Assembly: GCA_910579535.1 (NCBI GenBank)
Contig: CAJTUR010000002.1
Span: 124 to 64,123, forward strand
DNA from: an uncultured Bacilli bacterium
GTDB taxonomy: Bacteria > Bacillota_I > Bacilli_A > RF39 > UBA660
Reading direction: 5' to 3'
Length of the DNA stretch: 64,000 nucleotides
Below, piece by piece: positions 9,459 through 27,386 of the stretch (positions within the stretch are counted from its first letter, which is position 1; the number at the start of each line of letters is the position of its first letter). The position numbers and the translations under genes are program-made. The notes below the pieces were generated by a model, which searched no databases, was not told the DNA's origin, and saw nothing but the letters and a program-made list of their open reading frames with translations.

Positions 9459-11438
9459 TTACCTCATATTAAATGCTTTCATTGTATTTTTAAGAATACT
9501 TTTTTCTTCTTTGTTGTAAACCATGTTTACTGTATTGACTAAGTTTTTGTCTTCATCATAAAGTTCAATTTTATAGACTGTACTATAAGTAACTGTGTAT
9601 TCTTTTACAAAATCTGTACTTTCATAAGGACTGTAGATTTTCATCCATGAATAAGCGGTATTTTTGACACTAATATGATCGGTTGTAAAGAAAGTCATAT
9701 CTTCAAATACAAATGGTTCATCCTCATTTTTATCAATCGTAAAGGTTATTTCTTCTGATTTATTGTGTGCTTTATCTAAAGCGTAAATAGTATACGTTCC
9801 ATTTTCAGATAGTTCTGTTCCTAATGTATATGGAATATTTTCTCCATCTTTCGTTAAATAAACGATTACTTCTTGAGTTTCATTTGAAACGGTGATGGTT
9901 ACATTTTCTTCATAAGTCGTATTATTTTCAATACCTTCTATTATAGGAGCTTGGGTATCAATTGTAAATTGAATTTCAGTTTGGTTAAAAGCTTTATCAA
10001 TTACTACTAAATTGTAAACTTTATCTTCAGTGATGTTTGAAAGATTGTCTTGTGTTACTTCTTCATTATTTAAATAAATTTTAAATTCGTTTTGATCTTT
10101 AATTGAAATGGATACTGCTGTGTTCACATAAGCATTATTTTCAATGCCTTCAATGATTGGACTTATTGTATCGTCTAGGATTTTAGCTAGTTCATTTAGA
10201 ATCAATGTTAGTTCATTTTTTAACTCTTCATTTTCTAAAGCATTTACTTTATCTGTGATTTGATTGTTTGTTCTGTAATCTCGTGCTCCATCAATTTCTG
10301 CTTTATTTGTTGCATTTGTTACTTTTTCTTCTAAAGTTTGAACTAATTTTTTTATAATAAAATTGTTTTGTAACTCATCTAATTTATCTTGTAGTTCTTG
10401 TTTTTTATTTGGATCTGTTACTTGATTGATTTTATCTTGTGCATCATCTAAATTATCTTGAGTTAGATTATTCTCAGCGTTATCTAGAGCATTTTCGGCA
10501 TCTTTAATTTTGTTCTCTTCATCAAGTTTGTTTTGTAATTCATCTAATTTATCTTGTAATTCTTGTTTCTTGTCTGGGTCTGTTATTTGATTAATTTTGT
10601 CTTGTGCATTATCTAGATTATCTTGAGTCAAATTATTCTTTGCATCTTCTATTGCTTGTTCAGCGTCTTTAATTTTGTTTTCTTCATCAAGTTTATTTTG
10701 TAATTCATCTAGTTTATCTTGTAGTTCTTGTTTCTTATCTGAATCTGTGACTTGATTAATTTTATCTTGAGCTTTATCAATATTCTCTTGTGTTAAATTA
10801 TTCTCAGCTTTATCTAAGGCTTCTTCAGCATCTTTAATTTTGTTCTCTTCATCAAGTTTATTTTGTAATTCATCTAGTTTGTCTTGTAGTTCTTGTTTTT
10901 TATCTGGATCTGTTATTTGATTAATTTTATCCTGTGCGTCATTAATATTTTCTTGTGTTAAATTATTCTCAGCTTTATCTAAGGCTTCTTCAGCATCTTT
11001 AATTTTGTTCTCTTCATTTAAATCTGGTGATTCGGGTTTTGTGGGATTTTCCTCATTGTTATCTGGAACTTGAGTATTATTGTTATTATTGCTGTTGTTT
11101 TGATTTTGATTATTGTTTGGGTTATTATTTGTTGTTCCATTATTATTAGGACGATTCGGTTTCGTTTGATTAATTATAATATTTTCACCATTATTATCAG
11201 TATCGGTTTCATTTGGTTTTAAAATATCATCTTCTGTCCCTTCAGGAGGATTGATTTCCCCTGGATTAGTTGTGTTTTCATTACTTGGCTTATCTGAATC
11301 CGTTTTATTTGTTTTTTGCTCATCTTTTGTTCTTGTTCCTTTAATTTCATCTTGACTAGGATTCGCAAAAACAAAAGTACTTGTTCCTAAAAATAAAAAT
11401 AATACTACGGCAATAACTATGCCTCTTTTTTTGTTCAT
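9459..11438 (-). CDS. Secreted surface protein with an N-rich tract, 4 x 55-aa helical repeats and two Ig-like C-terminal repeats
   Basis: Signal peptide, an asparagine-rich low-complexity run and four near-identical 55-aa repeats. Two copies of the P(I)IEGIENN...FTID module follow. Confidence 0.7.
   Translation of the reverse strand: MNKKRGIVIAVVLFLFLGTSTFVFANPSQDEIKGTRTKDEQKTNKTDSDKPSNENTTNPGEINPPEGTEDDILKPNETDTDNNGENIIINQTKPNRPNNNGTTNNNPNNNQNQNNSNNNNNTQVPDNNEENPTKPESPDLNEENKIKDAEEALDKAENNLTQENINDAQDKINQITDPDKKQELQDKLDELQNKLDEENKIKDAEEALDKAENNLTQENIDKAQDKINQVTDSDKKQELQDKLDELQNKLDEENKIKDAEQAIEDAKNNLTQDNLDNAQDKINQITDPDKKQELQDKLDELQNKLDEENKIKDAENALDNAENNLTQDNLDDAQDKINQVTDPNKKQELQDKLDELQNNFIIKKLVQTLEEKVTNATNKAEIDGARDYRTNNQITDKVNALENEELKNELTLILNELAKILDDTISPIIEGIENNAYVNTAVSISIKDQNEFKIYLNNEEVTQDNLSNITEDKVYNLVVIDKAFNQTEIQFTIDTQAPIIEGIENNTTYEENVTITVSNETQEVIVYLTKDGENIPYTLGTELSENGTYTIYALDKAHNKSEEITFTIDKNEDEPFVFEDMTFFTTDHISVKNTAYSWMKIYSPYESTDFVKEYTVTYSTVYKIELYDEDKNLVNTVNMVYNKEEKSILKNTMKAFNMR
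10356..11015 (-). repeat. In-frame 165-nt tandem repeat x4 inside the surface-protein gene
   Basis: The unit EENKIKDAEEALDKAENNLTQENI.DAQDKINQ(I/V)TDPDKKQELQDKLDELQNKLD occurs four times with few substitutions. Confidence 0.85.
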
Positions 11439-11626: not shown

Positions 11627-12154
11627 TTATATAAATTTAAAACGATTTAATGGCCAAAAGCGAATGGCAATTTTTCCAATAATATCTTTTTTTGAAATTA
11701 ACCCTATTTCTCTACTGTCTAAAGAATCAACGCGATTATCTCCTAAAACTAAATACATTCCTTCGGGGATTTTATCGTATCCTAAATCTTTTAAATAAAA
11801 ATCATCGTATTCTAATTCTTTACTAATGTAGGATTCTTCAAATTTTTCATTATTTATAAAAAGTGTGCTGTCTTTAATATACACATTTTCTCCTGGAAGA
11901 CCTATTACTCTTTTTATTAAATACTTTGTATTTGCATATTTTAATGAAATAATATCTCCCCTTTTTACATCTGTAAAACGATAATTAAATTTACTTAATA
12001 TAAACAATTCTTCATCTTTTAAAGTAGGATGCATCGAATTTCCTACGACTTTTGTTACTGAAAAAACATATTGTATGATAAATAAGATTACCACGACAAA
12101 AATAACAATTTTTAAAGTGTCTTTTAAAAACTCTTTTATTTCTAGCCAATCCAT
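11627..12154 (-). CDS. Type I signal peptidase (S26, Ser/Lys P-type)
   Basis: GNSMHPTL (catalytic Ser), KRVIGLPGE (catalytic Lys) and GDNRVDSLDSR motifs. Confidence 0.85.
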   Translation of the reverse strand: MDWLEIKEFLKDTLKIVIFVVVILFIIQYVFSVTKVVGNSMHPTLKDEELFILSKFNYRFTDVKRGDIISLKYANTKYLIKRVIGLPGENVYIKDSTLFINNEKFEESYISKELEYDDFYLKDLGYDKIPEGMYLVLGDNRVDSLDSREIGLISKKDIIGKIAIRFWPLNRFKFI

Positions 12155-12176
12155 TTTTATTCTCCGTTCAAAAAAA

Positions 12177-12821
12177 CTAATTTAAATTTACATTTGCTTC
12201 TTTGGTTGATTGCTCAGCAATCACTTTTATTTTTAATTTAACCATTGGTTGATCGTTATAGTTTTCAGATTCATGATCAGAAATAGCACTTTCTCCTAAA
12301 GAAGTGTCTGTTCTATCCATGTCATCATCTTCATAAAAGTTCCATTTCCAACTTATGGTATGTTGATTGACTTTTAAAGGTTTATTTGCGGGATAAACGT
12401 CTTCTTCTCTCAATAAATTTTCTAAGAAAAATTTCAAAGTTTTGATGTCTAAGTTGTTATAGATTCCATCTAAACTGTAAGTCATTCTTCCTACGGTATC
12501 TAATGCTTCTAATACTTCAATTCTTAAAGTGTAATTGGTTTCGGGAATACCTGTAATGGTAAAGGTGTATTCTCCCTCTGTTCCAGGCGCAACAATTGCG
12601 TCTAAGTTCCCAGATTGTACCATTTTAGCTCCTTGTTCATTAAAATAAGAATCACGAAATAAGTCAATTTCTCTTGTTATGCCTATGTCCCATTTCGCGA
12701 CTCTTGCTTCATCACTGATATCAACTGATGAAACGTATTTAGCCATGGTTCCACTTACACCATATATACTCATTAATGTTAGAAACATTAAGCTTATTAA
12801 AAAGATAGATTTCCTTTTCAT
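12177..12821 (-). CDS. Secreted protein resembling TasA/BsaA-type matrix proteins
   Basis: Signal peptide followed by GTMAKYVSSVDISDEARVAKWDI. This resembles N-termini I associate with SipW-dependent matrix proteins. The gene is adjacent to a signal peptidase gene. Confidence 0.4.
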   Translation of the reverse strand: MKRKSIFLISLMFLTLMSIYGVSGTMAKYVSSVDISDEARVAKWDIGITREIDLFRDSYFNEQGAKMVQSGNLDAIVAPGTEGEYTFTITGIPETNYTLRIEVLEALDTVGRMTYSLDGIYNNLDIKTLKFFLENLLREEDVYPANKPLKVNQHTISWKWNFYEDDDMDRTDTSLGESAISDHESENYNDQPMVKLKIKVIAEQSTKEANVNLN

Positions 12822-12908: not shown

Positions 12909-14150
12909 TTAATTGATTTCTAAAATTTCGGTGTAATCGTATTTTTCTGGCACTTCTATTTGGGCGATATTACCCTGTTCATCCTTAATTATTTTTACAA
13001 ATAGTAACTTTGTTTCTATTAAGTGCGCTATTTTTTGGTAAGGTTTAATTACTTGCTCTTTATATTTTACGACGTCTTCCTTAATTAAATGAATGCAATT
13101 TTCTTTTTTCTCTTCACTGGTATACCCACAAAGAATGTAATACTTAAATGTGGTTTTATCTAAACCACTCAAATCGCCTGTTTTGATTTTGTAACCTTCT
13201 TCTAATCTGTTTATTGTTTCATTTAGAGCCCTTTTATTTTCAAAAAATAAGCGCATATCATGCAAGTGTTTTAATACCCCATTGTTTTCAATAGAAATGA
13301 CGTTATTGTCGGCTTTAATTTCAACAAATATTATTTTTTTGTTTTCTCCTACATAGGCATTATCAATTCGGCCACTAAATTTCGTATCATTCCAAAGGGT
13401 TGTTTCTTGAAATTTTTTATTATCATAAACGAAAACTTGCTGTCCTTTTGAACCGCGATAAGGGTAGATGACTACCTCAACTTCTAATGGCAAGGCATTT
13501 TGTTGAATCACCGCACTACAATCTTTTTTCATCATGTATTGTTGAAACATTTTTTCGTCTTTATTCCCTACAAATTCTAAATTGTATTTTTTTATTAATT
13601 CTTTCATTTGCATAATGATTTCATTTAATGTAACACTTTCTAATTGTTCATATTTTAATAAAAATTTAATATCAAAACTAGGCTTTTTTAAAGGCGACTT
13701 ATCCACTGTAACTTTTAAGAGTTCTTGTTGTATTTCGATGACACTCTCAATGGTATTGATGTCTTTAAATTCAATTTTAAAACTTTCTAATTCTTGTAAA
13801 GATTGGGATAATTCCTCTTTTTTTACAATATTTTCTAAGTTTTCTAGTTTCTTTTTAAAGTTGCTTAAGTTGGCATTGGTAAATTCAATGGTTGCGGTTT
13901 CACAGATGATTTCAAAATAAGGATTATATTGATTGAGTTTTTTAATCGCTTTGATATATTTTTGATAATTTTTTTCTTTAAACTCTTTTCCACTTAATTT
14001 TAAAGTTTCAGGCAAGGTGACTATGTTGTTTTTTAAATCAATGTCAAGAAGTCTTTGCCCTAAATAATATACTTTTTGATTGTCTTCGCGATACCTAATA
14101 ATCAGTTCTTCATCTTTTTTTACAATATTTATTAATTCTTTTAATTCCAT
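12909..14150 (-). CDS. Hypothetical protein with a PD-(D/E)xK-like nuclease motif (last gene of the cluster)
   Basis: 413 aa. GRIDNAYVGENKKIIFVEIKAD gives a D...E-x-K arrangement in a beta-rich context. A 3-nt gap separates it from the upstream gene. Confidence 0.4.
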   Translation of the reverse strand: MELKELINIVKKDEELIIRYREDNQKVYYLGQRLLDIDLKNNIVTLPETLKLSGKEFKEKNYQKYIKAIKKLNQYNPYFEIICETATIEFTNANLSNFKKKLENLENIVKKEELSQSLQELESFKIEFKDINTIESVIEIQQELLKVTVDKSPLKKPSFDIKFLLKYEQLESVTLNEIIMQMKELIKKYNLEFVGNKDEKMFQQYMMKKDCSAVIQQNALPLEVEVVIYPYRGSKGQQVFVYDNKKFQETTLWNDTKFSGRIDNAYVGENKKIIFVEIKADNNVISIENNGVLKHLHDMRLFFENKRALNETINRLEEGYKIKTGDLSGLDKTTFKYYILCGYTSEEKKENCIHLIKEDVVKYKEQVIKPYQKIAHLIETKLLFVKIIKDEQGNIAQIEVPEKYDYTEILEIN

Positions 14151-14153
14151 TTC

Positions 14154-15371
14154 TTATACCTCTATTTCTTCTTCGTCTTTGATTAAATAAACATTCTCTA
14201 AGATTTGTTGTAGTTCTTTGGCATTTGTCGTGTGTATGGGAATGACTTCTTTGGCTTTAAGTTTATTTAATAAAGCGATGGTTTCAATACTAGCATGACC
14301 TGATGTATGTAAGTTTATTTTATCATAAATTTCATAATTTTTTATTTTTTCTAAGAACTCTTTCATTTCTTCTTTTTCTTGGTACCCTTCCCACATGGAG
14401 TATAGAAGAACCGCATTCGTAATTTTCTTTTTGGCGTAGAGTTTTTCTATGTCTTCTAACATGGAAGTTTTTACAAGTAGTGTATATTTTTTGTTTTCAT
14501 AGGCTTCCTTTTTGCTGTATTTTTTAAAGGGTTCGATGTACATTTTTTTAAATTCTTTCTGTTTCTTTTTATATTTTGTCGGAATCCAAACGTAAACATT
14601 AGAAAAATTTTGAGGATTGGGAATTTTGTTGTTTTGTAGATGAGTAGCGATATTCGCGGTGAATAAGTCTTCGATAAAGTTTTTGTTCGTTTTTCGACTT
14701 GCTTTATAAATGGTTGTGATACGGTCGATATTGGTAGACGCCTGTAAAATAAACACTTGGTCATATTTTTTAAATATTTCAGTCGCTTCTAGGGTTAGTT
14801 CTTCTTCGGTTTTACTTTTTTCATTCTTTCTTCCTAAGGTTGTTCCTTCTGTTATGATTAGGTCAACAGTTCCTATTTCTTTGATTGCTTTTAAAAAAAG
14901 AGTGCCTTTTCTTCCATGATTTCGGAAGTCCCCCGTGTGCAAGATTCGTTTGTTTTCAGCTTCGATTAAAAACATAGCTGCATTATAGGAAGAGTGATCG
15001 ACTAAAAATGGAGTGATCGTGATGTCTTTAATGGTTATGGGTTTATGAAAGTTAAAGTGTAAGGTTTGTTTTTTGGGGTATTTTTTAGAGGTGAATTCAT
15101 TTAATAGATGATAGATTTTTTCTGAAATTTCTTCAACATAAATGGGAATATCTTCTAAGATATTGTGGATAAGTCCAATGTGATCACCATGGCTGTGGGT
15201 AATGAAGACGGCATCATAAGCGGGAGTTCCTTTGGTTAATCCTTCAATTTCAAAGTCCTTTTCTTCGTCAAGGTCACTTCCAAAATCGATGATAATTTTG
15301 GTGTTTTCCGTTTTGATTTCAGTGATACAGCCTCCTATTTGGTCGGTTCCTTTCCAAATTTTCACTTTCAT
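14154..15371 (-). CDS. beta-CASP metallo-beta-lactamase-fold nuclease (RNase J/CPSF-like)
   Basis: HSHGDHIG (HxHxDH), HTGDFRNHG, LIITEGT and LHTSGHAS motifs. Its start overlaps the upstream stop (ATGA at 15368-15371). Confidence 0.7.
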   Translation of the reverse strand: MKVKIWKGTDQIGGCITEIKTENTKIIIDFGSDLDEEKDFEIEGLTKGTPAYDAVFITHSHGDHIGLIHNILEDIPIYVEEISEKIYHLLNEFTSKKYPKKQTLHFNFHKPITIKDITITPFLVDHSSYNAAMFLIEAENKRILHTGDFRNHGRKGTLFLKAIKEIGTVDLIITEGTTLGRKNEKSKTEEELTLEATEIFKKYDQVFILQASTNIDRITTIYKASRKTNKNFIEDLFTANIATHLQNNKIPNPQNFSNVYVWIPTKYKKKQKEFKKMYIEPFKKYSKKEAYENKKYTLLVKTSMLEDIEKLYAKKKITNAVLLYSMWEGYQEKEEMKEFLEKIKNYEIYDKINLHTSGHASIETIALLNKLKAKEVIPIHTTNAKELQQILENVYLIKDEEEIEV

Positions 15372-17440
15372 AAAACATCTCCTATTTTACTTTCTAATAG
15401 TGTTTTCAATTTTAGTTGTTCTGTTAATTTTGTTTCAGTTCTTAATGCTTGTTCTATTTCTTCCCTAGTTTTATGAGGATTTATTTCGTTTTGTTTAAAG
15501 TAAGTAGAATAAAAAATTTCAGGGTAATCTATTTTTAGTTCGGCAAGTCTTAAAAACATTACGCTATAAGATAAGAGATGCCCTTTCGGGAAAAGGTACT
15601 TTATTTTGCCAATGGAGTCGATTAACCATTCAGGCATCTTCTTTTCTTGCATTAATTTTTTATATTCTTCCCAATTCTCCTTTTTTAATCTTCCAAAACT
15701 GATGTCTTCCATTATTTTTAAGGCATCCTTTCTTTCAAATTGATAGTTTAATAAGGTTGCTAATAAGTCTTCTCTTGAAGAAATGGTGTCTTTTAACTCA
15801 CAAATTTTCTTTTCAAGCAATTCTTGAGCGTTTTCATACCAAGTGTCTGTACCATGAAAAAGCCCATAGAGTTTTATTAAGTCTTCTTGAGAGTAAAGTT
15901 TTAAAGAGGGATTCTTTTTTTCTATAAAGTCTAATAAAAATTCATGAAAGCCTAGTATTCCAAATGGATAAGTAATTTCTTCTTTAGTTATTTTTAATAC
16001 TTTGGGACTATTAAATAAAGAAATGGTACGATTGTCGATGACTAATTCGTGAATGTCTTCTTGAATTTGGTTTTGAATTTCTTCTAATAAGGTTAGTAAC
16101 GAGTGTTCTAGGATGCCAAAACTGGTGATTTTTAAGTTTTCTGTTGGAATTTGAATGATTTTTTTATTTCCTATTATTTTAAAGGGAAGAAAAGATTGGT
16201 CATTTTCTTTTGGGAAGATGTAGTTTCGGCCCGCATGGATTCCTTCGGTCATTTTTACTCCAACGATTTTTAAGGCTAAGGCTTCTTTTTCTTCATTTTT
16301 TAATGTGAGGTTAAATTTTAGGCAATAGTCTTCAACTTTTTTTAAGGCTTCTTGTGGAGAATAAACTTTTTCAGTTCTTAAATAATAAATGTTGTAGTTT
16401 TCTTCTAAGGTGTTTAGGATTTCTTCTCTTTCATAAGCAAAGTTTATATTGATATCTGGCTTTTTATCAAAGTGACTTCCATAAAATATTTCAGGGGCTA
16501 AGTTTTTTTCTATGGGATTAAATTCGGTGATGTTTAATAAGTAGGCAATAAATGAGGAAGCGACTGCTCCTCTTGAAGAGGATAACTCACTTTTTGCACC
16601 TTGCATAATTTCTGCCCATATGAGATAAATGCTTGCGTTATGCTGGGCGAAAATACTTTTTAGTTCGAGCTTTATTCTTTCTAGGACTTCCAAAGGAATA
16701 TTTTTACCATATTTTTCTTGAACTTTTTTTTCTATTAAGGTTTTTAATTTTTCCTCTGCTTTCTCTATCTGTGGTTCTTTAGGTTCTTCAAGAGTTATTT
16801 TTTCTATCTGATTTATTAATGTCTTTTGGTTTTCAATAAAAATTTCATGTTTGATTGGTTCATCAAGATAAGAAAATTCTTCCCAAAGTTCTTCTTTTGT
16901 TTTTAAGTGAAAGTCTTTTAAATGTTCCATTTTTTGGTTCATTAGAATGGCCCAGGCTAATTTGTCTTCTTTTTTTAGGTAACGGACTTCATTTAGGATT
17001 AAAACTTTTTTGTTTTGTTTTTTCGCGGAGTCGAGGATTTTTAAAACTTGTTCTTTCTTCGTTGTGCTAGGAATTCCAATATAATCATAATAAAAATCCA
17101 GTGCGTTTGGTACTTCTTGGATTAAGATAGTGACGACGTTTGGGCATCCTTTTAAATTTTCGAGGGTTATTTCCTTTAATGAAAGTAGTTTAAATAATTC
17201 TTTTATCCCCTGGTTGTTTTTGGCAACGACAATATAGGAAAGTGATTCTTTAGTGGTTATTTCCATGCCATACATGAAGTTTTTGTTTTGTTCTTTAGTT
17301 AATAAATTTACTTGATAAAAATCGGAGATATCTTCTTTATTGGCTAAAATAAAGTTTTTTTCTGTTTCCATTAACTCTTTTATCTCTATTAAACTCTCTT
17401 TATTTGTTTTGGTGTGGACCCAATGAAGGATTTCATTCAT
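15368..17440 (-). CDS. Truncated PolC/DnaE-family DNA polymerase III alpha-like protein, predicted catalytically inactive
   Basis: Colinear with the PolC polymerase core. SSRGAVASSFIAYLLNITEFNPIE matches GSRGSVGSSFVA..TEVNP, and PDININF matches PDIDLNF. GVKMTEGIHAGRNYIFP matches GVKRTTGQHPGG, and FGILEH matches LDILGH. LFHGTDTWYENAQELL matches LSHGTDVWLGNAQELI, and IKYLFPKGHLLSY matches IKYMFPKAHAAAY. At 690 aa it is too short to contain the PolC N-terminal, OB and 3'-5' exonuclease regions. Confidence 0.75.
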   Translation of the reverse strand: MNEILHWVHTKTNKESLIEIKELMETEKNFILANKEDISDFYQVNLLTKEQNKNFMYGMEITTKESLSYIVVAKNNQGIKELFKLLSLKEITLENLKGCPNVVTILIQEVPNALDFYYDYIGIPSTTKKEQVLKILDSAKKQNKKVLILNEVRYLKKEDKLAWAILMNQKMEHLKDFHLKTKEELWEEFSYLDEPIKHEIFIENQKTLINQIEKITLEEPKEPQIEKAEEKLKTLIEKKVQEKYGKNIPLEVLERIKLELKSIFAQHNASIYLIWAEIMQGAKSELSSSRGAVASSFIAYLLNITEFNPIEKNLAPEIFYGSHFDKKPDININFAYEREEILNTLEENYNIYYLRTEKVYSPQEALKKVEDYCLKFNLTLKNEEKEALALKIVGVKMTEGIHAGRNYIFPKENDQSFLPFKIIGNKKIIQIPTENLKITSFGILEHSLLTLLEEIQNQIQEDIHELVIDNRTISLFNSPKVLKITKEEITYPFGILGFHEFLLDFIEKKNPSLKLYSQEDLIKLYGLFHGTDTWYENAQELLEKKICELKDTISSREDLLATLLNYQFERKDALKIMEDISFGRLKKENWEEYKKLMQEKKMPEWLIDSIGKIKYLFPKGHLLSYSVMFLRLAELKIDYPEIFYSTYFKQNEINPHKTREEIEQALRTETKLTEQLKLKTLLESKIGDVL

Positions 17441-17954
17441 AATATTTTTTTACCTCGCTTTCGTATAAAATTAAATCAATATTGATGTCGTGATTTTTTA
17501 CAAAGTCCCTAATCATGTTTTTTAACATGGGTCCTACTTCTTCATGCGTAAAGCCATATTCTCCTGTTCCAATACTTGGGAGTAAGATGTTTTTGTAGGA
17601 TTTTACACCCAATTCATCCAATAGGTTTTGATAAGTTATTTTTAGAATTTCTAAAGGATTTTTATAGTCCCAAACACGAGGGCCTTGAACAAAAAGAATG
17701 TCCATATTTAAGTTAAATCCAGGAGTGATTCGTATTTCTCCGACTTTCATTTCATTGGCGTTACTGTCATACGTGATATGATATTTTTCGCTTGTGTAGG
17801 CTTCTAGTACTTGGACGCCTGCTTTTTTAAATATGGCACCACTTACCCCCATCCCCATACGCATAGCGGGGTTGGTTGGGTTTACAATACAATCATGATT
17901 TTTTAAGATTTCATCAGTGGTGATGTCACCGATTAAGATGTTCATTTTGCCCAT
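17433..17954 (-). CDS. Macro-domain protein (ADP-ribose binding/hydrolysing fold)
   Basis: LIGDITTDE, DCIVNPTN, GMGVSGAIFKKAG and LLPSIGTGEYGF motifs. There is an 8-nt overlap with the downstream gene. Confidence 0.8.
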   Translation of the reverse strand: MGKMNILIGDITTDEILKNHDCIVNPTNPAMRMGMGVSGAIFKKAGVQVLEAYTSEKYHITYDSNANEMKVGEIRITPGFNLNMDILFVQGPRVWDYKNPLEILKITYQNLLDELGVKSYKNILLPSIGTGEYGFTHEEVGPMLKNMIRDFVKNHDINIDLILYESEVKKYYE

Positions 17955-18557
17955 TTAGTCTATCTCCTCAATCGAAAAATTTTCTTTGTTATAGGTTATT
18001 TTTATTTCGTTTTCTATTTTTCCTATTTGATAATTTTTAGGAATTTGATAATTCTCTATATCTTTTTCATTCATAAATAAAATAACTTCACTTTGATTTT
18101 CTTTCGCATAGTTTTCGATTTGATTAAAAATGGTTTCTATGTCTTCTGGGGTGCTACTAATAAAATCATCAAAGTCATCGATTAGGATACAATCGTATTT
18201 TGAGTTATGTTCAAATATAAATTCTAAATAAGTTTCGTCCGAAAATTTGTTTTTGCTCATGATTAAGTCGGATGAACGAATTTTTTCGATGGCATTTACA
18301 AATTTGGTGGGATTGATTTTTTCTTTAGTAGTGTGGCTAACGCCTAACGTTGGGTCTAAATAGGTTTCGATGATTTTATAGGATTCTCCTGATAATAAGG
18401 CAATGAGTTTACTTAAGTAAAAGTTTTTGGGAACATAAAATATTGGAAGAAAGACGGATTTGTTTTGATTTAGGGCATATTCGTTTAGAAGGTTGATAAA
18501 AAAAAGTATTCTTTCTTTGTTATTCATACTCGTGATAATTGAAATTTTTGGGTTCAT
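17955..18557 (-). CDS. Degenerate DnaB-C-terminal-domain (RecA-fold) protein lacking Walker A
   Basis: ISIITSMNNKERILFFINLLNEYA aligns with DnaB LIIIAARPGMGKTAFALNIA, and the GKT is lost. YDCILIDDFDDFI aligns with IDYLQL. AKENQSEVILFMNE aligns with AKEL..PVIALSQLSR. Confidence 0.55.
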   Translation of the reverse strand: MNPKISIITSMNNKERILFFINLLNEYALNQNKSVFLPIFYVPKNFYLSKLIALLSGESYKIIETYLDPTLGVSHTTKEKINPTKFVNAIEKIRSSDLIMSKNKFSDETYLEFIFEHNSKYDCILIDDFDDFISSTPEDIETIFNQIENYAKENQSEVILFMNEKDIENYQIPKNYQIGKIENEIKITYNKENFSIEEID

Positions 18558-19864
18558 GAGTTGCTCCTTTCAAAGGCAAAGATTCTTTCAGGATTTTGGT
18601 TGGATTCTTCAAAGATTAAGTCTACTTTTTCATCGTCTCTTTTTAAAGTGGTGATGATGTTTTGGGTAAATTTACTAAAGTTATGATAAAAGGGTAAATC
18701 TTCTTTAGGGTGACGTATTTGATAGGCATTCAAGATGATGATTTTGGTGTTTTCATATTTGGCATATTGGTAAAGTTGTTCTACTATTTCTTCTCCCTCT
18801 TTCGAACAACGTTTTTGGAAAGTGATAAAGTCATTTATGATTAAGTAATCATAATGGTTTTCTAAGTTTAAAATCTCAGTTTCTAAGTCTATTTTCTTAA
18901 AAAGTTCAGTGTCTTCAAAGTTTTCATAAGTACAATTTAGCGAATTATTTTTTAGTTTTCCATCAAAGTCACAAATTCTTATTTGGGTGTTTTCTTTTAA
19001 AACTTGTTCTTTTAGGATGTTTAGAAGCGTTAGGGCCTCTTGGTTTTCTTCACTATATAATACACTGATTTTATTATTGGTGAAGCGGGTTTCAAATGTT
19101 TTTTCGATTCCATTTTCTTCAAATGTTAAAATTTCATTTGTCTTTGAATTGAGGCTTACTTTTTCGCCCGTGTCAAAATGATAAATCCCCTCTTTTGCAT
19201 TATAGTCGATTACTTTTACGTTATGGTGCTTATAAAAGTTTAGGCTTCCATAGCCAGAAAGTCCTCCTTCTAAAAATAAAAATTGGGTATTGGTTTTACG
19301 GGCGTAGTTCTGAATGGTTTCTAAAACTTTTACTCTTGCTTCTTCATAGGGGATTTGGAGCTCTTGTTCTAATTTTTTTTGTTCATATCTTAAACAACTA
19401 TTGATGTCTTTTAGTATAACTAAATCATATTTTGTATTTTTATAATGTTCATCAAAAATAAAGTAAAGGTTGCCATAGTCAGCATAGATGGATTCGTTTA
19501 TTTGAAAGTGACTATTTTTGATGGTTTCTAAAGAGGCGAAAAAGGCTTCTTTGTTTGGTAAATCGTTTACGACTTGCCTTTCTTCTAGTCGTTGTTGATA
19601 ACTAAATGGGGCTAAATAAGCGAGTGTTTTTTCTAGGTCAATGTTGGAAATTCGCGAAACGAGGTTGGCATGAAACCAGCTCGTGTCTTCAGGAATGTCA
19701 TTCACTGAGGTTATGAGTAAGACTTTTTTGTTTTCTTTTATGGCTGTTTCATAAATGATGTTGGTTAGTAGTGGTGTTAAATCTATGGTAGACCCCCACT
19801 CTCTAGAAATCCATAAATTAATTTCTTGGGTTAATAATTTTTTTGCTATTTTTATTTGATTCAT
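18554..19864 (-). CDS. Protein with two degenerate DnaB-C-terminal/RecA-like modules
   Basis: First module: ISREWGSTIDLTPLLTNIIYETAIKENKKVLLITS, YDLVILKDINSCL and ARKTNTQFLFLE. Second module: YDYLIINDFITF and AKYENTKIIILNAYQIR. The preferred start is ATG 19864 (MNQIKIAKK), preceded by AAAGGAAAGAG. A 4-nt overlap joins it to the next gene. Confidence 0.5.
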   Translation of the reverse strand: MNQIKIAKKLLTQEINLWISREWGSTIDLTPLLTNIIYETAIKENKKVLLITSVNDIPEDTSWFHANLVSRISNIDLEKTLAYLAPFSYQQRLEERQVVNDLPNKEAFFASLETIKNSHFQINESIYADYGNLYFIFDEHYKNTKYDLVILKDINSCLRYEQKKLEQELQIPYEEARVKVLETIQNYARKTNTQFLFLEGGLSGYGSLNFYKHHNVKVIDYNAKEGIYHFDTGEKVSLNSKTNEILTFEENGIEKTFETRFTNNKISVLYSEENQEALTLLNILKEQVLKENTQIRICDFDGKLKNNSLNCTYENFEDTELFKKIDLETEILNLENHYDYLIINDFITFQKRCSKEGEEIVEQLYQYAKYENTKIIILNAYQIRHPKEDLPFYHNFSKFTQNIITTLKRDDEKVDLIFEESNQNPERIFAFERSNS

Positions 19865-19889
19865 ATACTCTCTTTCCTTTTCTACTTCC

Positions 19890-19898
19890 ATTATAACA
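19890..19898 (-). promoter_or_regulatory. Extended -10 promoter element (TGTTATAAT) in front of the 18554-19864 gene
   Basis: The minus strand reads ...ctgTGtTATAATgg, ending ~25 nt upstream of ATG 19864. The -35 region is weak. Confidence 0.4.
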
Positions 19899-19902
19899 CA
19901 GT

Positions 19903-19925
19903 AAAAAAGCCGTTTAGTAAACGAC
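19903..19925 (-). terminator. Intrinsic terminator-like hairpin between the second and third genes of the cluster
   Basis: The minus strand reads GUCGUUU-ACU-AAACGGC followed by UUUUUU. Confidence 0.5.
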
Positions 19926-19967
19926 ATTCTTTTTTATATTTATCTGTTTTAAACACTATTTTTTCGG

Positions 19968-21020
19968 CTATTTTGTAATTGCATTTATTTGGAACCATTC
20001 TTTCTTTTTAAAATCGTACCCGATATTTTGGTAAAGATTATTTAAGTCTTCTAAATCTCTTTCAATTTGGCGTTCCGATTGCAAAAAAACTGTTTTTAGT
20101 TCTTTAGTGGTGAAGGTTTCTTTTCCTTTTAAATATTTTTTTAGTTCTTCTAGTTTTTCTCTTCTTTGGGCACTTATTTTACGTGATTTATTTGTTAATA
20201 AGTTGTTAAGAAATAAACGGTACAGGGTTTCGTCTTCAAAGTAGTTTTCGTTGACAAAATAAAAAGGACTGTATTTTAAATGGTATTTGTTTTGTTTTTT
20301 TACGTCTTGAGTGATGATGTAAACATAGGTAAAGTTTTTAAAGAATGTTCGGTATTTTTTATCCAGTTCTATACTGTTTTTTGGTAATAAATCTTCTTTT
20401 ATGATTGCTAGAAAGCCCTGTTTTCTTTTTAGTTCGTCTAGGATGTTGGCTTTTTTTATGTAGGGAAATTGACAAGCCAATTCATTTTCAATTCTGTCTT
20501 TAAATTCTTGTTGTCTTTTATCGGTGAAGTTTATGTTATCTAATTTCCCACAAAGATAAACGATTCGTTTTTCTTTTTTTAAATCGATGGCATGTGGTTT
20601 TACGTTTATTGTTTTTATTGGGGATTTTACGGATTTAAGGGAGGTTTTTATTTTGTTTTGGGTATTTAAAATAGTATAAAAGGAAACTTGTTCGAGATAG
20701 GCTTTTATTTTTAATAAGTTTTCGTTTAAGTTTAAAAAGAGGATGAGATCACTTGAAATGATTTCTTCACTAAACATGGGGGTATCTGGTTTTATTTGGA
20801 TGCTCTTTTTTACTTTTTCTTTTTCTTCGTCAGTGATATATCTAAGATCGATGTAGCCAAATTGGAGGGTGAGTTTTTGGTCATAAAGACTTGCAAAATC
20901 GTCGATTTTTAGTTCGTTCATTAATTCTTTTTTGCCACTAATTCTAGTTCCTAAAATCAAAATGCGTTTTTCAGGATTTTCTTTAATGATTTTTTTGATT
21001 TTCCTAATTTCTTCTTTCAT
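19968..21020 (-). CDS. Hypothetical protein: deviant P-loop-like N-terminus, central Rossmann-like segment, C-terminal winged-HTH
   Basis: ILILGTRISGKKEL fits GxxxxGK-like. RIVYLCGKLDN is reminiscent of nucleoside deoxyribosyltransferase/SLOG-type strands. The C-terminus TTKELKTVFLQSERQIERDLEDL is DeoR/HTH_11-like. A 4-nt overlap joins it to the NUDIX gene. Confidence 0.4.
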   Translation of the reverse strand: MKEEIRKIKKIIKENPEKRILILGTRISGKKELMNELKIDDFASLYDQKLTLQFGYIDLRYITDEEKEKVKKSIQIKPDTPMFSEEIISSDLILFLNLNENLLKIKAYLEQVSFYTILNTQNKIKTSLKSVKSPIKTINVKPHAIDLKKEKRIVYLCGKLDNINFTDKRQQEFKDRIENELACQFPYIKKANILDELKRKQGFLAIIKEDLLPKNSIELDKKYRTFFKNFTYVYIITQDVKKQNKYHLKYSPFYFVNENYFEDETLYRLFLNNLLTNKSRKISAQRREKLEELKKYLKGKETFTTKELKTVFLQSERQIERDLEDLNNLYQNIGYDFKKKEWFQINAITK

Positions 21021-21466
21021 TCTACTCCCTTTATTTTATTTAAGGCCTGCTGCGTCATTTCATCTCCAACACTTCCCCAATTCAAGTAATTATTTAACTC
21101 TTTTAAGGGAATCAAAATTCTTTGGTAGGTTTCATGTTCGGCGGGATCAGGTCTTTCTTCACCAATGGATTTAATAGTGGCTAACATTCTTACTTGGGCA
21201 TAGGAATCCTTTGTATCACCATTGACTTCTTGGAAGCCTAAATAGGAAATATCGGAAATTATTATATTTACTTCTTCTAATACTTCACGTTTTAGGGTTT
21301 CTTCTAGCGTTTCATTTTTTTCAGGATGTCCGCCTGGAATACGATAATTCCCATTTTTTTCTTGATAAATCAGCACTTGCTTCTTCTCATTTAAGATAAT
21401 GCCAGAGACTTGCGTAATTCTCATATTTTTGGGGACTTCTTCGGTATGGTAGTTATATTCAATCAT
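21017..21466 (-). CDS. NUDIX hydrolase (first gene of the cluster)
   Basis: Nudix box GGHPEKNETLEETLKREVLEEVN. Confidence 0.8.
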   Translation of the reverse strand: MIEYNYHTEEVPKNMRITQVSGIILNEKKQVLIYQEKNGNYRIPGGHPEKNETLEETLKREVLEEVNIIISDISYLGFQEVNGDTKDSYAQVRMLATIKSIGEERPDPAEHETYQRILIPLKELNNYLNWGSVGDEMTQQALNKIKGVE

Positions 21467-21581
21467 TTTTTTCCTCCACTTTGATTTATTAATCGCTTTT
21501 CTTGAACTCCTATTTTTCTCTAATTTTTCAGGTTGGTATAACCATTTTTTAACTTCTACAATGACCTAAATATTTATGTTC

Positions 21582-22076
21582 TTATTTTTTTCTATCTGGG
21601 ACATGCCAAACATCAATTTCTTCTTTTTGGGGAATTTCAAATATAGAGGAAACCTTTTTTAATAATCCTTCATCCACATAAAAACTGGAACCTCCATTAC
21701 CTGCTAGAACTTTACTATTTCTTTCTTCTATATTTTCATACCAAGTTGTATCATCAATATCAATATAATGCATTTCTAATAAAATTTTATGTTCTTTGGC
21801 ATACTCTTTAATTTCATTTCTATTTTCCTTTACCCAAAATCCCCAATCTAAAATTACAGTACATCCTGCATTAACAATTTCTACTGCTTTTTTTCTTAAA
21901 TATAAATTCACTCTTCTAGCAAATTCATCATAATCTTCCCCTTGTTTATTATTTGTTAAATCATAAGTTACTTCATCTGTAGATAAAATCACAGCATGTT
22001 CTTTTTCTTTTAATTGATTCGCATAATAAGTTTTGCCACAACCAATTTTTCCACATATACAAATTAATTTTGCCAT
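21582..22076 (-). CDS. Small P-loop kinase/ATPase (AAA_33-like)
   Basis: Walker A CGKIGCGKTY and a Walker B-like VILDWGF. 164 aa. Confidence 0.6.
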   Translation of the reverse strand: MAKLICICGKIGCGKTYYANQLKEKEHAVILSTDEVTYDLTNNKQGEDYDEFARRVNLYLRKKAVEIVNAGCTVILDWGFWVKENRNEIKEYAKEHKILLEMHYIDIDDTTWYENIEERNSKVLAGNGGSSFYVDEGLLKKVSSIFEIPQKEEIDVWHVPDRKK

Positions 22077-22090
22077 AAACCTAATCTCCT

Positions 22091-22675
22091 TTATTTCCTT
22101 AATCCATCACTTTGTACCCAAGAATAAAATAAACTTTTATCTGGAACATTGTATTCGTAATCTAATTTTGAATTAAAACTATCTATTAAATCAATTGCCT
22201 CTTTCAATACTTCCTCTTTACTTTTGCCTACTATATCTAAGATAACTTCATTAGGCAATAGATCTCTATCCATAATTTTTTTTGTAGATATTTCTAATAA
22301 TTCCAAGTCAATTAATCCATCGGAACCACGAGCAATCATTTGTCTTTTATTTTGTTCATAATCACTTGAAATTAATTTTAAAGTAACAAAATTGGTACCT
22401 TTAAATATTTGTGGTATTTCCCTTGATCTAATGTCATTGAAATCAAGGGCTATAATATATTTTAGACCTTTATCATAAAAATATTTTAATAATAAAATAA
22501 AAGATTCCCACATTATTTCTTCTTCGAATTTTCCTTCATCAACATTATCTGGTATGCCAAACTCTGGAATCATGTTTTGTTCAAAATAAACTCCATTATA
22601 ATGTTTATACAATTCTTTTGCCAAAGTAGTCTTTCCAATACCACTAGGACCAATTATAAATATATAATCTTTCAT
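22091..22675 (-). CDS. Small P-loop kinase/ATPase
   Basis: Walker A IIGPSGIGKTTLAKEL. 194 aa. Confidence 0.6.
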   Translation of the reverse strand: MKDYIFIIGPSGIGKTTLAKELYKHYNGVYFEQNMIPEFGIPDNVDEGKFEEEIMWESFILLLKYFYDKGLKYIIALDFNDIRSREIPQIFKGTNFVTLKLISSDYEQNKRQMIARGSDGLIDLELLEISTKKIMDRDLLPNEVILDIVGKSKEEVLKEAIDLIDSFNSKLDYEYNVPDKSLFYSWVQSDGLRK

Positions 22676-22689
22676 TTCCGTTCCTCCAT

Positions 22690-23349
22690 TTATCTTTTAA
22701 TTATGAATTCTAATAGAAATTCCTTTAAATGCTCTAATATATTTTTTTCTAAATCTGTTTCTAAATAATCTGTATTTTCTTTAATATCAAGAAATTCTAA
22801 AACAAATGGATCTTTTACTAAATCTTTACTTGATTCTAAAATTTGACCTTTCTCTGCAAGTTCTAAGATTTTTTCTTTATTAGTAGATAAGGCTAATCTT
22901 TCATATAATAGAGAACCGATTTGCCTCCCAAGTTCCCTAACACTCCATTTAGTATTTATACATTCATTGAATTAAAAATTCCTTTTAGTTTCTTCCTCTA
23001 TCTTTATTAATTCCAAATAATGTGACCAACTTAATTGCGACGACACTGTTGTCGCAATTGGAAAATAAATATAGAATTTTCTCATTCTCTCTAAATTTCT
23101 TTTAGAAAATCCTTTGCCAAATTCATTCGTTAATTTTTGTGATAGTTTCTCCAAAACAGCATCACCATAACTTGCTCTTTCATCTCCCTGTTGGATTTCC
23201 ATAATTGCCTCGCCAATATTCCAATAAAGCTTAGGCATTTCCGTATTTACAGCACTATATACTTTATTTCTACTATTAATAACTAATTCTTTTATATTAT
23301 CAAATATAGTATTAATTTCATTATCATTTTTAATTAATTCATTGTCCAT
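22690..23349 (-). pseudogene. DUF1016 (YhcG-like PDDEXK nuclease) pseudogene with an in-frame stop and a 3' truncation
   Basis: The N-terminal 125 aa parallel the intact paralog at 55435-56451. My translation continues in the same frame through TAA at 22972-22974 (NF*FNECINTKWSVRELGRQIGSLLYERLALS...EFLLE). It then ends before the nuclease core. Confidence 0.75.
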
Positions 23350-23778
23350 TAATTGCCTCCAATTTTCAATTCAAATCATAAAGACTTCTTATGTCTAAAT
23401 TATACTCTAAGTAAAACTCTTCCATACTCCATATTCATTTTAACTTCTTTTAATTGTAATAAGGGAATTCTTTTAGTTAAACTTATGAAACTTGCTAGCT
23501 ACCGATTATGTCAATATAAACTTAACTGATAAACGATTAACTATCGTAAATAATGTTTAAGATTCGATTGTTTTTTAAATAAATCTATGCTATTTATAGT
23601 ATTTGCTAGATTTCTATTTTTTGATTGTTTATTTTAAAGATACAGTTTTTTTCTAAAATTTTTGCCATTTTTTTAGGAATTTCAAAGGGTTTTGCCCATT
23701 CTTTTTGAAGTATAGTTAAGTCAATGTTTTCTAAAGTTTCATAATTTATAATTAAATTTTCTGCGGTTATTTCAATAC

Positions 23779-24075
23779 TCACTTTTTTATTTTTTGGACT
23801 TCTTTATTGATGTTATCTTGAATGGTAGAATTAATGGTTCGATGATAAGTGATGTCTAATTTGTCTGCTAAGACTAAAGAAAGTCCTATAAATGAATTTA
23901 CTTCGTTTCCAGAGCCATGATCTTGAATCGCATGTTCTAAAATCTTTTTTTCTTCTTCCGTAACGTTTGTGTTTCCTAAGTACTTACGAAACATCTTACT
24001 ACTTCTTAAAGCATGTTCTTTTTTGTTGGTATCACTTTCACTTAAACCAATATCATGAAGTAAAGCGGCGGACAT
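23779..24075 (-). pseudogene. HD-domain phosphohydrolase fragment
   Basis: Begins at ...AALLHDIGL, so it lacks the upstream His region. Another frame continues downstream to about 23620, which suggests a frameshift. Confidence 0.5.
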
Positions 24076-24082
24076 TCATAAA

Positions 24083-24706
24083 TCATTTTTCTTCTCCTTC
24101 AATTTGCTTTATGTCTTCTAGAGTTTCAGGCCAATTTATTTTTTCTAAATAAATTTTTGGACAATTGCCATTTTTAAAAGCAATACCAATATGATTTAAA
24201 GTACTAAAGTTCATTTCTCGTTGGTCATCGTAGTTTTTAAAATAGTCTTCTATCTTTATTTGTTCATAATAATTCTCATCTAATTTTTGATTATCACTAT
24301 AACTTAAATCATAGCCATAAAAGATTTCTTCAATTTGCGTAGCCAATTTTTCATCATGTATATTTATTCGATAAATATCTTTAACTTTGGATAATTCTTT
24401 TATTTTATCTCCTAAATTTATAAAAGGCGGATAGCGAAAGAAATAAATGTAATAGGCACCATTTTGACCACGAAATTTTTTTAACGCTTCGATATAATCT
24501 TCTCTAGTTAAATTTTCTTTTCCATGGTATTCTTTTAATCCCCATTCATTTATTATGCGTTGTTTATATTTTAAGACGTTTTTATCAAATTCTTTAAACA
24601 TTTTATGATCGTACATATATTGTAAACTGTTTAAACCTTTACTTAAGTTGACATCTTTATTTACAAGGTGATAAAAATAAAGAGGCGTTTTTTGATTTGT
24701 ATCCAT
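24083..24706 (-). CDS. Hypothetical protein
   Basis: 207-aa ORF. No motif recognised. Confidence 0.45.
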   Translation of the reverse strand: MDTNQKTPLYFYHLVNKDVNLSKGLNSLQYMYDHKMFKEFDKNVLKYKQRIINEWGLKEYHGKENLTREDYIEALKKFRGQNGAYYIYFFRYPPFINLGDKIKELSKVKDIYRINIHDEKLATQIEEIFYGYDLSYSDNQKLDENYYEQIKIEDYFKNYDDQREMNFSTLNHIGIAFKNGNCPKIYLEKINWPETLEDIKQIEGEEK

Positions 24707-24754
24707 ATTGCTTTTCCTTTCTTCTTATCTACTATTTTTACATCATTCTTTTGG

Positions 24755-25624: not shown

Positions 25625-25707
25625 AATCTCACCTTGTTGAATAGCTTCTATTATATTTATAACTTGTCAGAAAGGCAATAAAAAAAATAGTCATTTTTAA
25701 AATTTTA

Positions 25708-27296: not shown

Positions 27297-27386
27297 TTTC
27301 TTCCTCCTTCTGTTTTTAATTTAAAGAAAAAAAGAGAAAATGGCAATCGTCTTTTGGTTTAATCCGCTCAACTTTAAGTTGATTTT

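Follow-up and report, generated by a model that had tools for sequence, protein, structure and literature searches.

Catalytically dead replisome homologs joined to two nucleases in a Bacilli gene cluster: a candidate, previously undescribed conflict operon

Inactivated polymerases and RecA-fold proteins serve as scaffolds in mutasomes and in eukaryotic replicases. In the ImuA-ImuB mutasome, a dead RecA-fold protein and a dead polymerase homolog act in this way (PMC3919608). The known metallo-beta-lactamase (MBL) defense effectors, HamM and the Avs-associated proteins, are pro-nucleases of the ComEC-like kind, and a trypsin-like protease fusion activates them (PMC12799240). Here, we analyze a cluster of eight genes at positions 12909 to 21466 of a 64,000-nt stretch (contig CAJTUR010000002.1; the whole stretch is called the window) from an uncultured low-GC Bacilli ("Tenericutes") gut bacterium, whose closest genome records are the metagenome-assembled genomes CAJTYF01 and CAOKAG01. 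In a previously undescribed association, the cluster joins a C-family polymerase and replicative-helicase modules, all predicted to be dead, to two nucleases. We give about an even chance to the reading that it is an undescribed, regulated conflict operon (a candidate anti-phage or anti-plasmid system) that evolved from the replication module of a mobile element. An open reading frame (ORF) check of the window found all eight ORFs intact and on the minus strand, as follows.

21017-21466, minus strand: NUDIX, 149 aa, the first gene of an upstream NUDIX-g2 unit
19968-21020, minus strand: g2, 350 aa, with a degenerate P-loop-like N-terminal domain and a C-terminal winged helix-turn-helix (wHTH)
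18554-19927, minus strand, as the longest ORF (457 aa), or 18554-19864 from the conserved start at 19864 (436 aa): g3, with two predicted inactive modules of the DnaB C-terminal domain (CTD)
17955-18557, minus strand: g4, 200 aa, with one predicted inactive DnaB-CTD module
17433-17954, minus strand: macro, 173 aa, MacroD-type
15368-17440, minus strand: iPolC, 690 aa, a predicted inactivated mini-PolC
14154-15371, minus strand: beta-CASP MBL nuclease, 405 aa, active site intact
12909-14150, minus strand: g8, 413 aa, PD-(D/E)xK-type, from an uncurated family

An earlier, sequence-only reading of this locus had described eight co-directional, tightly packed, intact genes, and the ORFs and junctions bear this out: adjacent genes overlap by 4, 4, 8, and 4 nt or are separated by 0 and 3 nt, and the single spacer, of ~100 nt, lies between g2 and g3. 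The NUDIX, macro, PolC-like, and beta-CASP MBL identities proposed in that reading were likewise recovered by profile searches.

Described systems resemble the cluster in part, but it fits none of them. In Hachiman/HamMAB and Shedu, a PD-(D/E)xK protein works with a partner that senses DNA, as would the PD-(D/E)xK-motif protein of the window, and in HamMAB an MBL-fold DNase effector is encoded adjacent (PMC12799240), just as an MBL stands beside the PD-(D/E)xK protein here. However, the window MBL is of the beta-CASP type, unlike the ComEC-like MBL of HamM and Avs; the eight genes encode no protease domain recognized by Pfam and no HamB helicase; and the PADLOC Hachiman and Shedu models found no match in the cluster. 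As in DarTG and related macro-containing defense modules, the macro protein is MacroD/DarG-like (with a weak DarG match, 3.8e-6), but the cluster encodes neither DarT nor another ADP-ribosyltransferase, and the macro gene is missing from the version at L014 (L-numbers, such as L001, designate the loci and lineages compared with the window cluster). Like the ImuA-ImuB-DnaE2 operon, the cluster combines inactive RecA-fold and inactive polymerase proteins; in that system, however, the C-family polymerase DnaE2 is active and the dead polymerase belongs to the Y family, whereas the window cluster has a C-family polymerase that itself appears dead, two nucleases, and no active polymerase partner. 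At E <= 0.1, PADLOC-DB v2 gave no match for g3, g4, iPolC, the MBL, or g8, and its only matches were generic ones to NUDIX (PDC-S07), to the macro protein (the DarG match above), and to the HTH of g2 (WYL, 5e-5). The literature searched, whose coverage is incomplete so that its silence is absence of evidence only, yielded no description of catalytically dead PolC homologs or of this gene combination, and within those bounds the earlier statement that no described system has this combination holds.

The iPolC protein matched the NCBIfam PolC profile at 2.6e-95 and the PDB PolC structure 9qpc at 1.9e-61 over residues 131-651 (9qpc and 3f2b both scored about 1e-61). The homology extends over the PHP, palm, and fingers core, in which the PHP part is degenerate and its HxH motif is not conserved; on a 1,474-aa PolC, the alignment spans only about positions 640-1332 and skips the exonuclease insert. 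The exonuclease, the N-terminal and OB domains, and the C-terminal duplex/clamp-binding region are absent, and Pfam found no exonuclease, OB, or HHH domain. In a residue-level alignment, the PolC motifs PDIDLNF and KLDILGHD are replaced by PDININF and SFGILEHS, so that the window protein is missing two of the three C-family catalytic aspartates, which we take to correspond to D401, D403, and D555 of Escherichia coli DnaE. The L001 protein has PDIFINF, and that of L014, only 26% identical to the window iPolC, has ISIDINF and IINLLYH: two of the three aspartates are lost in each lineage, at positions that differ by lineage. Judged by these motifs, iPolC is a catalytically dead C-family polymerase homolog in every lineage compared. 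Its phage matches were to full-length PolC on unverified "Bacteriophage sp." scaffolds, probably bacterial DNA, and were dropped.

For g3 and g4, searches against Pfam (DnaB and DnaB_C), PHROGs, NCBIfam, and PDB profiles gave no match to DnaB; the fold was resolved only by structure prediction. The AlphaFold2 model of g4 (pLDDT 77, pTM 0.75) was compared with the PDB by Foldseek, and all of its top 50 matches were DnaB, SPP1 G40P, or T7 gp4 helicase domains (best match, E of 3e-6 and TM of 0.59). Because both halves of g3 are homologous to g4 (hhalign, 96.5% with an E of 7e-10 for the N-terminal half and 87% for the C-terminal half), we recognize three paralogous modules, two in g3 and one in g4, all of which are read as carrying the DnaB C-terminal RecA-like fold; the degenerate DnaB-CTD call of the sequence-only reading is in this way sustained. 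The Walker A motif GK[ST] is absent from all three modules in every lineage compared (g4 has ITSMNNKER at that position), and Pfam found no N-terminal DnaB domain in either protein.

The two nucleases present the opposite picture, in that their catalytic residues appear to be kept. The MBL protein matched Pfam Lactamase_B_2 (7.6e-15) and an NCBIfam RNase J family (2.9e-17), in the PDB it comes closest to EF2904 (2az4, 3e-20) and RNase J, and every one of MBL motifs 1-4 and beta-CASP motifs A-C is present in the window protein. Residues D29, H59-S-H61-x-D63-H64, H126, D148, E175, H355 and H359 of HTSGH, and H380 are invariant across four lineages. For g8, which matches no Pfam family, E199, E225, D263, E277, and K279 are invariant in an alignment of 27 family members, and E225, D263, and E277-x-K279 form the E...D...ExK signature of PD-(D/E)xK nucleases. 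The earlier PD-(D/E)xK call thus stands at the level of the motif, but less so at that of the fold: the g8 model (pLDDT 63) gave only a weak best match to SduA of Shedu (E of 5e-3, TM of 0.21), followed by Exo5 and HamA, and g8 matched Hjc weakly as well (E of about 1).

A metagenome scan with the MBL recovered 502 relatives, and neighborhoods were counted in 80 fetched metagenome loci. A g8-like gene directly adjoins the MBL gene in 34 of the 80; truncated or dead polymerase III alpha homologs lie within three genes of it in 8, and 5 have g2, or the C-terminal half of g2, in the vicinity. Further partners in this set are an FtsH-like AAA+/M41 protease and an ADP-ribosylglycohydrolase. The MBL and PD-(D/E)xK pair is a widespread core. 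A scan of Joint Genome Institute (JGI) metagenomes with g8 gave no match.

The complete assemblage, by comparison, is rare. The iPolC family forms three clusters in 5.8 billion proteins, and the g8 family is similar. Shuffled versions occur in at least three further lineages, with the following gene orders.

L013: macro-MBL-g8-g2-g4-like (a single DnaB-like module)-HNH, with no PolC gene between macro and MBL
L014: g2-g3-g4-iPolC-MBL-g8
L016: MBL-g8-g2 C-terminal half
L023: g2 C-terminal half-iPolC-MBL
L024: g8-g2 C-terminal half-FtsH-like-MBL

Common to these versions is a core made up of g2, the MBL, the PD-(D/E)xK protein, and the dead DnaB-type modules and PolC. The sequence-only reading had named, as outcomes that would refute it, a neighborhood confined to close relatives and homologous clusters that always sit in prophage or plasmid replication modules with intact PolC and DnaB. 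Neither was observed. The neighborhood does recur, in shuffled form, in L013, L014, L016, L023/24, and a Butyrivibrio plasmid, and the polymerase and helicase homologs look catalytically dead in every lineage.

Members of the MBL family are encoded on 12 plasmids (26-33% identity). The four inspected have it among defense genes, the neighbors being, respectively, McrBC and WYL genes; DUF262, 3'-5' exonuclease, and WYL genes; type IIG restriction-modification (R-M), GIY-YIG, and TcmP genes; and PP2C, RmuC, and DUF4011 genes. The version in a cultured organism is on a plasmid as well.

L104, plasmid pCY186 of Butyrivibrio proteoclasticus B316, BPR_RS19065-19015, record 124.0-135.3 kb: annotated as hypothetical, MBL, dnaX, AAA, and DnaA/Hda

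The order on pCY186 is WYL regulator, small D..ELK protein, MBL, DnaX-like protein, DnaE-like protein (480 aa), FtsH-like AAA protein (420 aa), PolC-like protein (332 aa), and Hda-like protein, and the block adjoins McrBC and lies near a replication initiation gene. Like the window, the plasmid has an MBL of this family (32.5% identity), preceded there by a D..ELK protein and an HTH regulator, and it carries two truncated polymerase III alpha homologs (hhalign, 97% and 99%) lacking catalytic aspartates: the DnaE-like protein is without them, and the PolC-like protein has LSIEINV instead of PDIDLNF. Behind the label hypothetical, then, are polymerase III alpha derivatives that had gone unrecognized. 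Unlike in the window, a true WYL protein is the regulator, macro and NUDIX genes are missing, and the partners are DnaX-like, Hda-like, and FtsH-like AAA protease proteins rather than dead DnaB modules. The pCY186 block is a second, independent "pseudo-replisome" configuration.

Despite the loss of catalytic residues, the cluster is not decaying. In comparisons with three further versions of the locus, omega (dN/dS) lies at 0.07-0.24 for every one of the eight genes, and none has an internal stop, even at a dS of 1.2-2.0 (omega is about 0.1 for NUDIX, 0.17-0.22 for g3, 0.08 for macro, and 0.2 for iPolC). The earlier description of the replication homologs as enzymatically dead in appearance yet intact is consistent with their missing PolC aspartates, missing Walker A motifs, and low omega. 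Chance juxtaposition, or a slowly decaying and functionless remnant, is for these reasons highly improbable: although the HD gene immediately upstream is a pseudogene in the window and an insertion with decaying genes separates it from NUDIX, purifying selection is evident at a dS of up to 2, no stop or frameshift interrupts any of the eight genes in any allele, linkage is kept across at least four lineages, and a promoter element (described below) is conserved. The cluster is intact in 7/7 independent assemblies with an identical S26 signal peptidase gene, and it is a conserved, selected unit rather than a decaying remnant.

The alleles have an uneven history. Two deeply diverged forms exist (dS of 1.2-2.0; iPolC of 690 or 697 aa, 63% identical), with flanks that are 98-100% identical (dS of 0-0.03), and the g8 stop codon marks the precise point at which nucleotide identity rises from about 72% to 99-100%. 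The flank at 11627-12821, comprising the genes for a 214-aa protein and the S26 peptidase, matches L001 and L008 at 99-100% identity. Comparison with L007 gives the inverse (flank dS of 0.64, cluster dS of 0.05-0.5), and the region is for this reason read as a recombination mosaic and not as a site of positive selection. A hypervariable island under diversifying selection was considered and rejected, given the low omega and given that the flank is the diverged part in the L007 comparison.

The origin of the cluster is suggested by intact relatives of its polymerase. An exhaustive HMMER search recovered mini-PolCs of ~700 aa, about half of which have degenerate catalytic triads; the literature searched contained no description of this family. 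The best match of the iPolC profile outside its own family (P0058, 6.8e-82) has intact motifs (PDIDLNF and KFDILGHD) and belongs to the metagenomic locus L113 (2051-4339), where the arrangement is full-length DnaB, mini-PolC, AAA, and macro. The L113 module resembles the cluster in its mini-PolC architecture (PHP, palm, and fingers, lacking the exonuclease and the terminal domains), in the order of helicase and then polymerase, and in the inclusion of a macro gene, whose product is 31% identical to the window macro protein. It differs in that its DnaB has an N-terminal domain and a Walker A motif, whereas the window helicase consists of three dead CTD-only modules, and the window has the MBL and PD-(D/E)xK pair and g2 beyond what the L113 module carries. 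Other mini-PolCs adjoin WYL/WCX regulators, a Mob_Pre relaxase, resolvases, or a CTD-only DnaB with intact Walker A, and those beside WYL/WCX, Mob_Pre, or resolvase genes have lost one or two aspartates. Given the intact L113 relative and the mini-PolCs at mobile-like loci, the cluster most plausibly descends from a mobile-element replication module, which also suggests that the macro gene was inherited from that module; recruitment of the nuclease pair would have come first, and loss of catalysis by the polymerase and helicase later. The ~700-aa mini-PolC family as a whole is found on mobile-element-like Bacillota contigs (L113, L108, L110, and L112).

Whether the cluster still serves such an element is a separate question. 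It could be the replication and maintenance module of a plasmid, integrative and conjugative element (ICE), or satellite, either domesticated or still element-serving, with dead PolC and DnaB recruiting host enzymes and serving, without catalysis of their own, as accessory proteins of replication or in its initiation or copy control, and with the nucleases as recombination or processing enzymes. The intact DnaB/mini-PolC/AAA/macro arrangement of P0058, the mini-PolCs beside Mob_Pre relaxase or resolvases, the plasmid-borne pCY186 version close to replication initiation, dnaX-like, and Hda-like genes, and the SSB and ClpP genes that adjoin some distant MBL relatives all speak for this alternative. 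We nevertheless hold it to be unlikely. No integrase or recombinase lies near the cluster, and the window contains no relaxase, no replication initiator, no tRNA gene, and no att-like flanking repeat (only low-complexity repeats); the combination of integrase and flanking direct repeats that marks an att-bounded prophage, ICE, or genomic island is not found, and the earlier statement that the cluster has no integrase, repeat boundary, or frameshift proved accurate. In every assembly sampled, the cluster has a fixed place between chromosomal genes, and catalytic residues have been lost differently in each lineage under purifying selection. In addition, the MBL and g8 found no match in 50,697 GenBank phage records, and scans of IMG/VR found none for g8, g2, and two dead mini-PolCs.

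Regulation of the cluster would involve g2. The sequence-only reading had called this protein P-loop-like with a wHTH; the second part has partial support, in that the PADLOC WYL model, over its HTH part (positions 5-53 of 229), weakly matches residues 289-339 (5.4e-5), but the P-loop-like motif GTRISGKK is not kept in all lineages, its Walker A lysine being absent in L014 and deleted in L007. The L001 ortholog matches ATPase_2 at 5.8e-5. Searches of g2 against PDB profiles returned noise only, hhalign comparisons with Hda-, DnaX-, AAA-, and WYL-type proteins matched at the P-loop only or not at all, and against two true WYL proteins hhalign gave a probability of <1%, so that g2 does not classify as a WYL/WCX regulator; relatives of the system do have true WYL regulators beside them. 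Orthologs of g2, or of its C-terminal half alone, occur in L013, L014, L016, L023, and L024/25. The spacer between g2 and g3 contains the following element.

19890-19926, minus strand: promoter/operator, TGTCGTTTAC-TAAACGGC-TTTTTTAC-TGTGTTATAAT, an extended -10 element with a palindrome or half-site ahead of it

The window contains a single copy of the combined pattern TGTCGTTT-N14-24-TGNTATAAT, against 0 expected by chance. L001-4, L007, L008, and L014 likewise have one copy apiece, located in the g2-g3 spacer as in the window, and the one copy in L016 precedes the MBL gene, with which the gene order begins there. We regard the element as marking a putative promoter, with an upstream protein-binding site, for a g3-g8 unit, and the presence of a conserved promoter upstream places the true g3 start at 19864. 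As g2 is the sole DNA-binding protein common to these loci, we infer that it is the regulator, and it probably controls the g3-g8 operon through TGTCGTTT and the extended -10 element. The palindrome was also flagged as a terminator-like hairpin and could end the NUDIX-g2 transcript as well. General promoter and terminator consensus scans were uninformative in the AT-rich DNA of the window, and Rfam found no RNA family in it. The internal promoter/operator and the probable role of g2, like the widespread MBL and PD-(D/E)xK core, go beyond what the sequence-only reading had noted.

That reading had also hypothesized that the system signals through ADP-ribose chemistry, which the comparison does not support as the core of signaling. 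Both enzymes are well-formed: NUDIX matched Pfam at 1.2e-15 (58.1 bits against a cutoff of 21.1), with a Nudix box in its translation (GHPEKNE-TLEETLK-REVLEE), and macro matched Pfam Macro at 2e-19 (70.1 bits against a cutoff of 22) and the NCBIfam O-acetyl-ADP-ribose deacetylase at 5e-15. However, L014 lacks both, and neither was seen in L016, L023, or L024. NUDIX, macro, and the neighboring HD gene are dispensable accessories, and ADP-ribose signaling is accordingly unsupported as core logic. An ADP-ribosylglycohydrolase (1e-65) lies immediately 3' of the same MBL family in L088, L091 (at about 3167-4330), and L094, a second ADP-ribose hydrolase, unrelated to macro, linked to this MBL.

In the conflict operon that we propose, the MBL and PD-(D/E)xK pair would be the effectors, acting against invading DNA. 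The dead mini-PolC and the three DnaB-CTD modules may form a nonenzymatic scaffold or sensor that recognizes the replication intermediates or replication proteins of an invader and licenses the nucleases. In favor of the conflict operon are the dead replicative sites beside intact nuclease motifs, the purifying selection, the recurrent but reordered neighborhood, the shared promoter element, the defense-type surroundings in the window and on plasmids, and the foreign composition and old alleles of the cluster. A more specific version, close to the guard or decoy hypothesis of the sequence-only reading and put forward here as a doubtful one, is that of a replisome-mimic immune sensor, in which pseudo-DnaB and dead PolC act as a decoy or guard and unleash the nuclease pair once bound. 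Pseudo-DnaB, e.g., (g3+g4)x2 with six dead RecA-like modules, would be bound by factors through which a phage or plasmid takes over the helicase or polymerase of its host, or by the replication forks of these invaders; in Butyrivibrio, the same role might be filled by the dead DnaE and PolC fragments and the DnaX- and Hda-like proteins. Were this so, dead replisome parts as immune receptors would be a recurrent principle.

WYL-type regulators are also known from DNA damage responses, a point in favor of an alternative in which the cluster encodes a DNA repair or damage-tolerance complex. By analogy with ImuA-ImuB-DnaE2, inactive folds would scaffold end-processing nucleases (a beta-CASP enzyme like SNM1/Artemis and a PD-(D/E)xK enzyme), and macro, NUDIX, and ADP-ribosylglycohydrolase proteins would remove DNA ADP-ribose adducts. 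Scaffolds of dead RecA-like and dead polymerase proteins are established for the ImuA/ImuB mutasome (PMC3919608), and ADP-ribosyl hydrolases recur beside this MBL (macro in the window and L013, ADP-ribosylglycohydrolase in L088, L091, and L094). We think this role quite unlikely, since the cluster is exceedingly rare and patchily distributed, its alleles fall into two deeply diverged forms in a mosaic region, the partners include McrBC, R-M, and GmrSD-like genes, and an active polymerase partner is wanting. The region is, moreover, compositionally foreign, as read from a GC skew (+0.05 to +0.14) that departs from that of its flanks (-0.15 to -0.32) even though the coding strand is identical.

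Several observations weigh against the conflict operon that we favor. Since the core proteins have no PADLOC match, only genomic context makes the case for defense. Just four lineages in 5.8 billion proteins have the full version, which is thus very rare, and the cluster is present in every sampled S26-identical genome, unlike the presence/absence pattern typical of defense islands. The fold assigned to g8 from its model is weak, and g2 is essentially unassigned. Finally, the closest relative with intact motifs is an ordinary DnaB/mini-PolC replication module and other mini-PolCs are on mobilizable elements; that the role is tied to mobile-element replication is improbable but deserves to be kept in view.

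If the cluster does act in defense, it would embody a new sensing principle, mimicry of the replisome, a machine that most phages and plasmids must engage, and a new effector pair, a beta-CASP MBL and an uncurated PD-(D/E)xK family, with hundreds of metagenome relatives. It would also offer an exaptation whose course can be traced, beginning with an intact DnaB/mini-PolC/macro replication module and leading to a derivative without catalysis. The idea is testable because a version exists in the cultured B. proteoclasticus B316. Even if defense is the wrong reading, four Pfam-less protein families under purifying selection call for explanation.

The 64-kb window is rich in defense-type genes (retron, Gabija, YhcG, and NOV_C). 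These and the other neighbors of the cluster are as follows.

21582-22076: AAA_33 kinase-like gene, inside the HD-NUDIX insertion
22091-22675: P-loop gene, inside the HD-NUDIX insertion, split in L007
22972-23349: DUF1016 N-terminal fragment, inside the HD-NUDIX insertion
23609-24096, minus strand: HD gene, a pseudogene in the window (first 56 codons deleted, frameshift near 23785)
24083-28088, minus strand: five tightly packed upstream genes (HTH_3, 233 aa; 236 aa; thioredoxin-like, 293 aa; 289 aa; and 207 aa), followed by HD
28146-30659: FtsX-family permease, 837 aa, between the retron reverse transcriptase and the HTH_3 gene
30746-31738, minus strand: stand-alone retron-type reverse transcriptase, 330 aa (PADLOC retron reverse transcriptase models, about 1e-113)
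31864-32598: mad8-like P-loop protein, upstream of the retron reverse transcriptase
45128-46291 and 55435-56451, minus strand: NOV_C (DUF3883-type) protein and intact YhcG PD-(D/E)xK nuclease, both often island-associated
50354-53654, minus strand: Gabija-like pair of overlapping genes, for a UvrD-type helicase (498 aa) and a GajA-type AAA_15 + OLD-TOPRIM protein (603 aa)

The HD gene is intact (219 aa) in L001, L007, L008, and L100. The insertion between HD and NUDIX (~2.1-2.3 kb; 21467-23600 in the window) carries decaying genes, and L007 has an extra, full YhcG-like gene at the same site; the interval is a local hotspot of insertion and decay. The upstream genes from HTH_3 to HD co-diverge with the cluster (dS of 0.2-1.0, omega of 0.1-0.3), but as all six are absent from L013, L014, and L016, we exclude them from the system. 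The HTH_3 block may be a separate system or may comprise partners of the retron, whose reverse transcriptase gene, ~9 kb from the cluster, abuts the HTH_3 gene directly in L001 and is absent in L008. Within the ORF at 9459-11438, which encodes a coiled-coil protein of 659 aa, three 165-nt tandem repeats (10500-11017) are 85-86% identical, and the length of this protein differs among assemblies (659, 769, or 390 aa).

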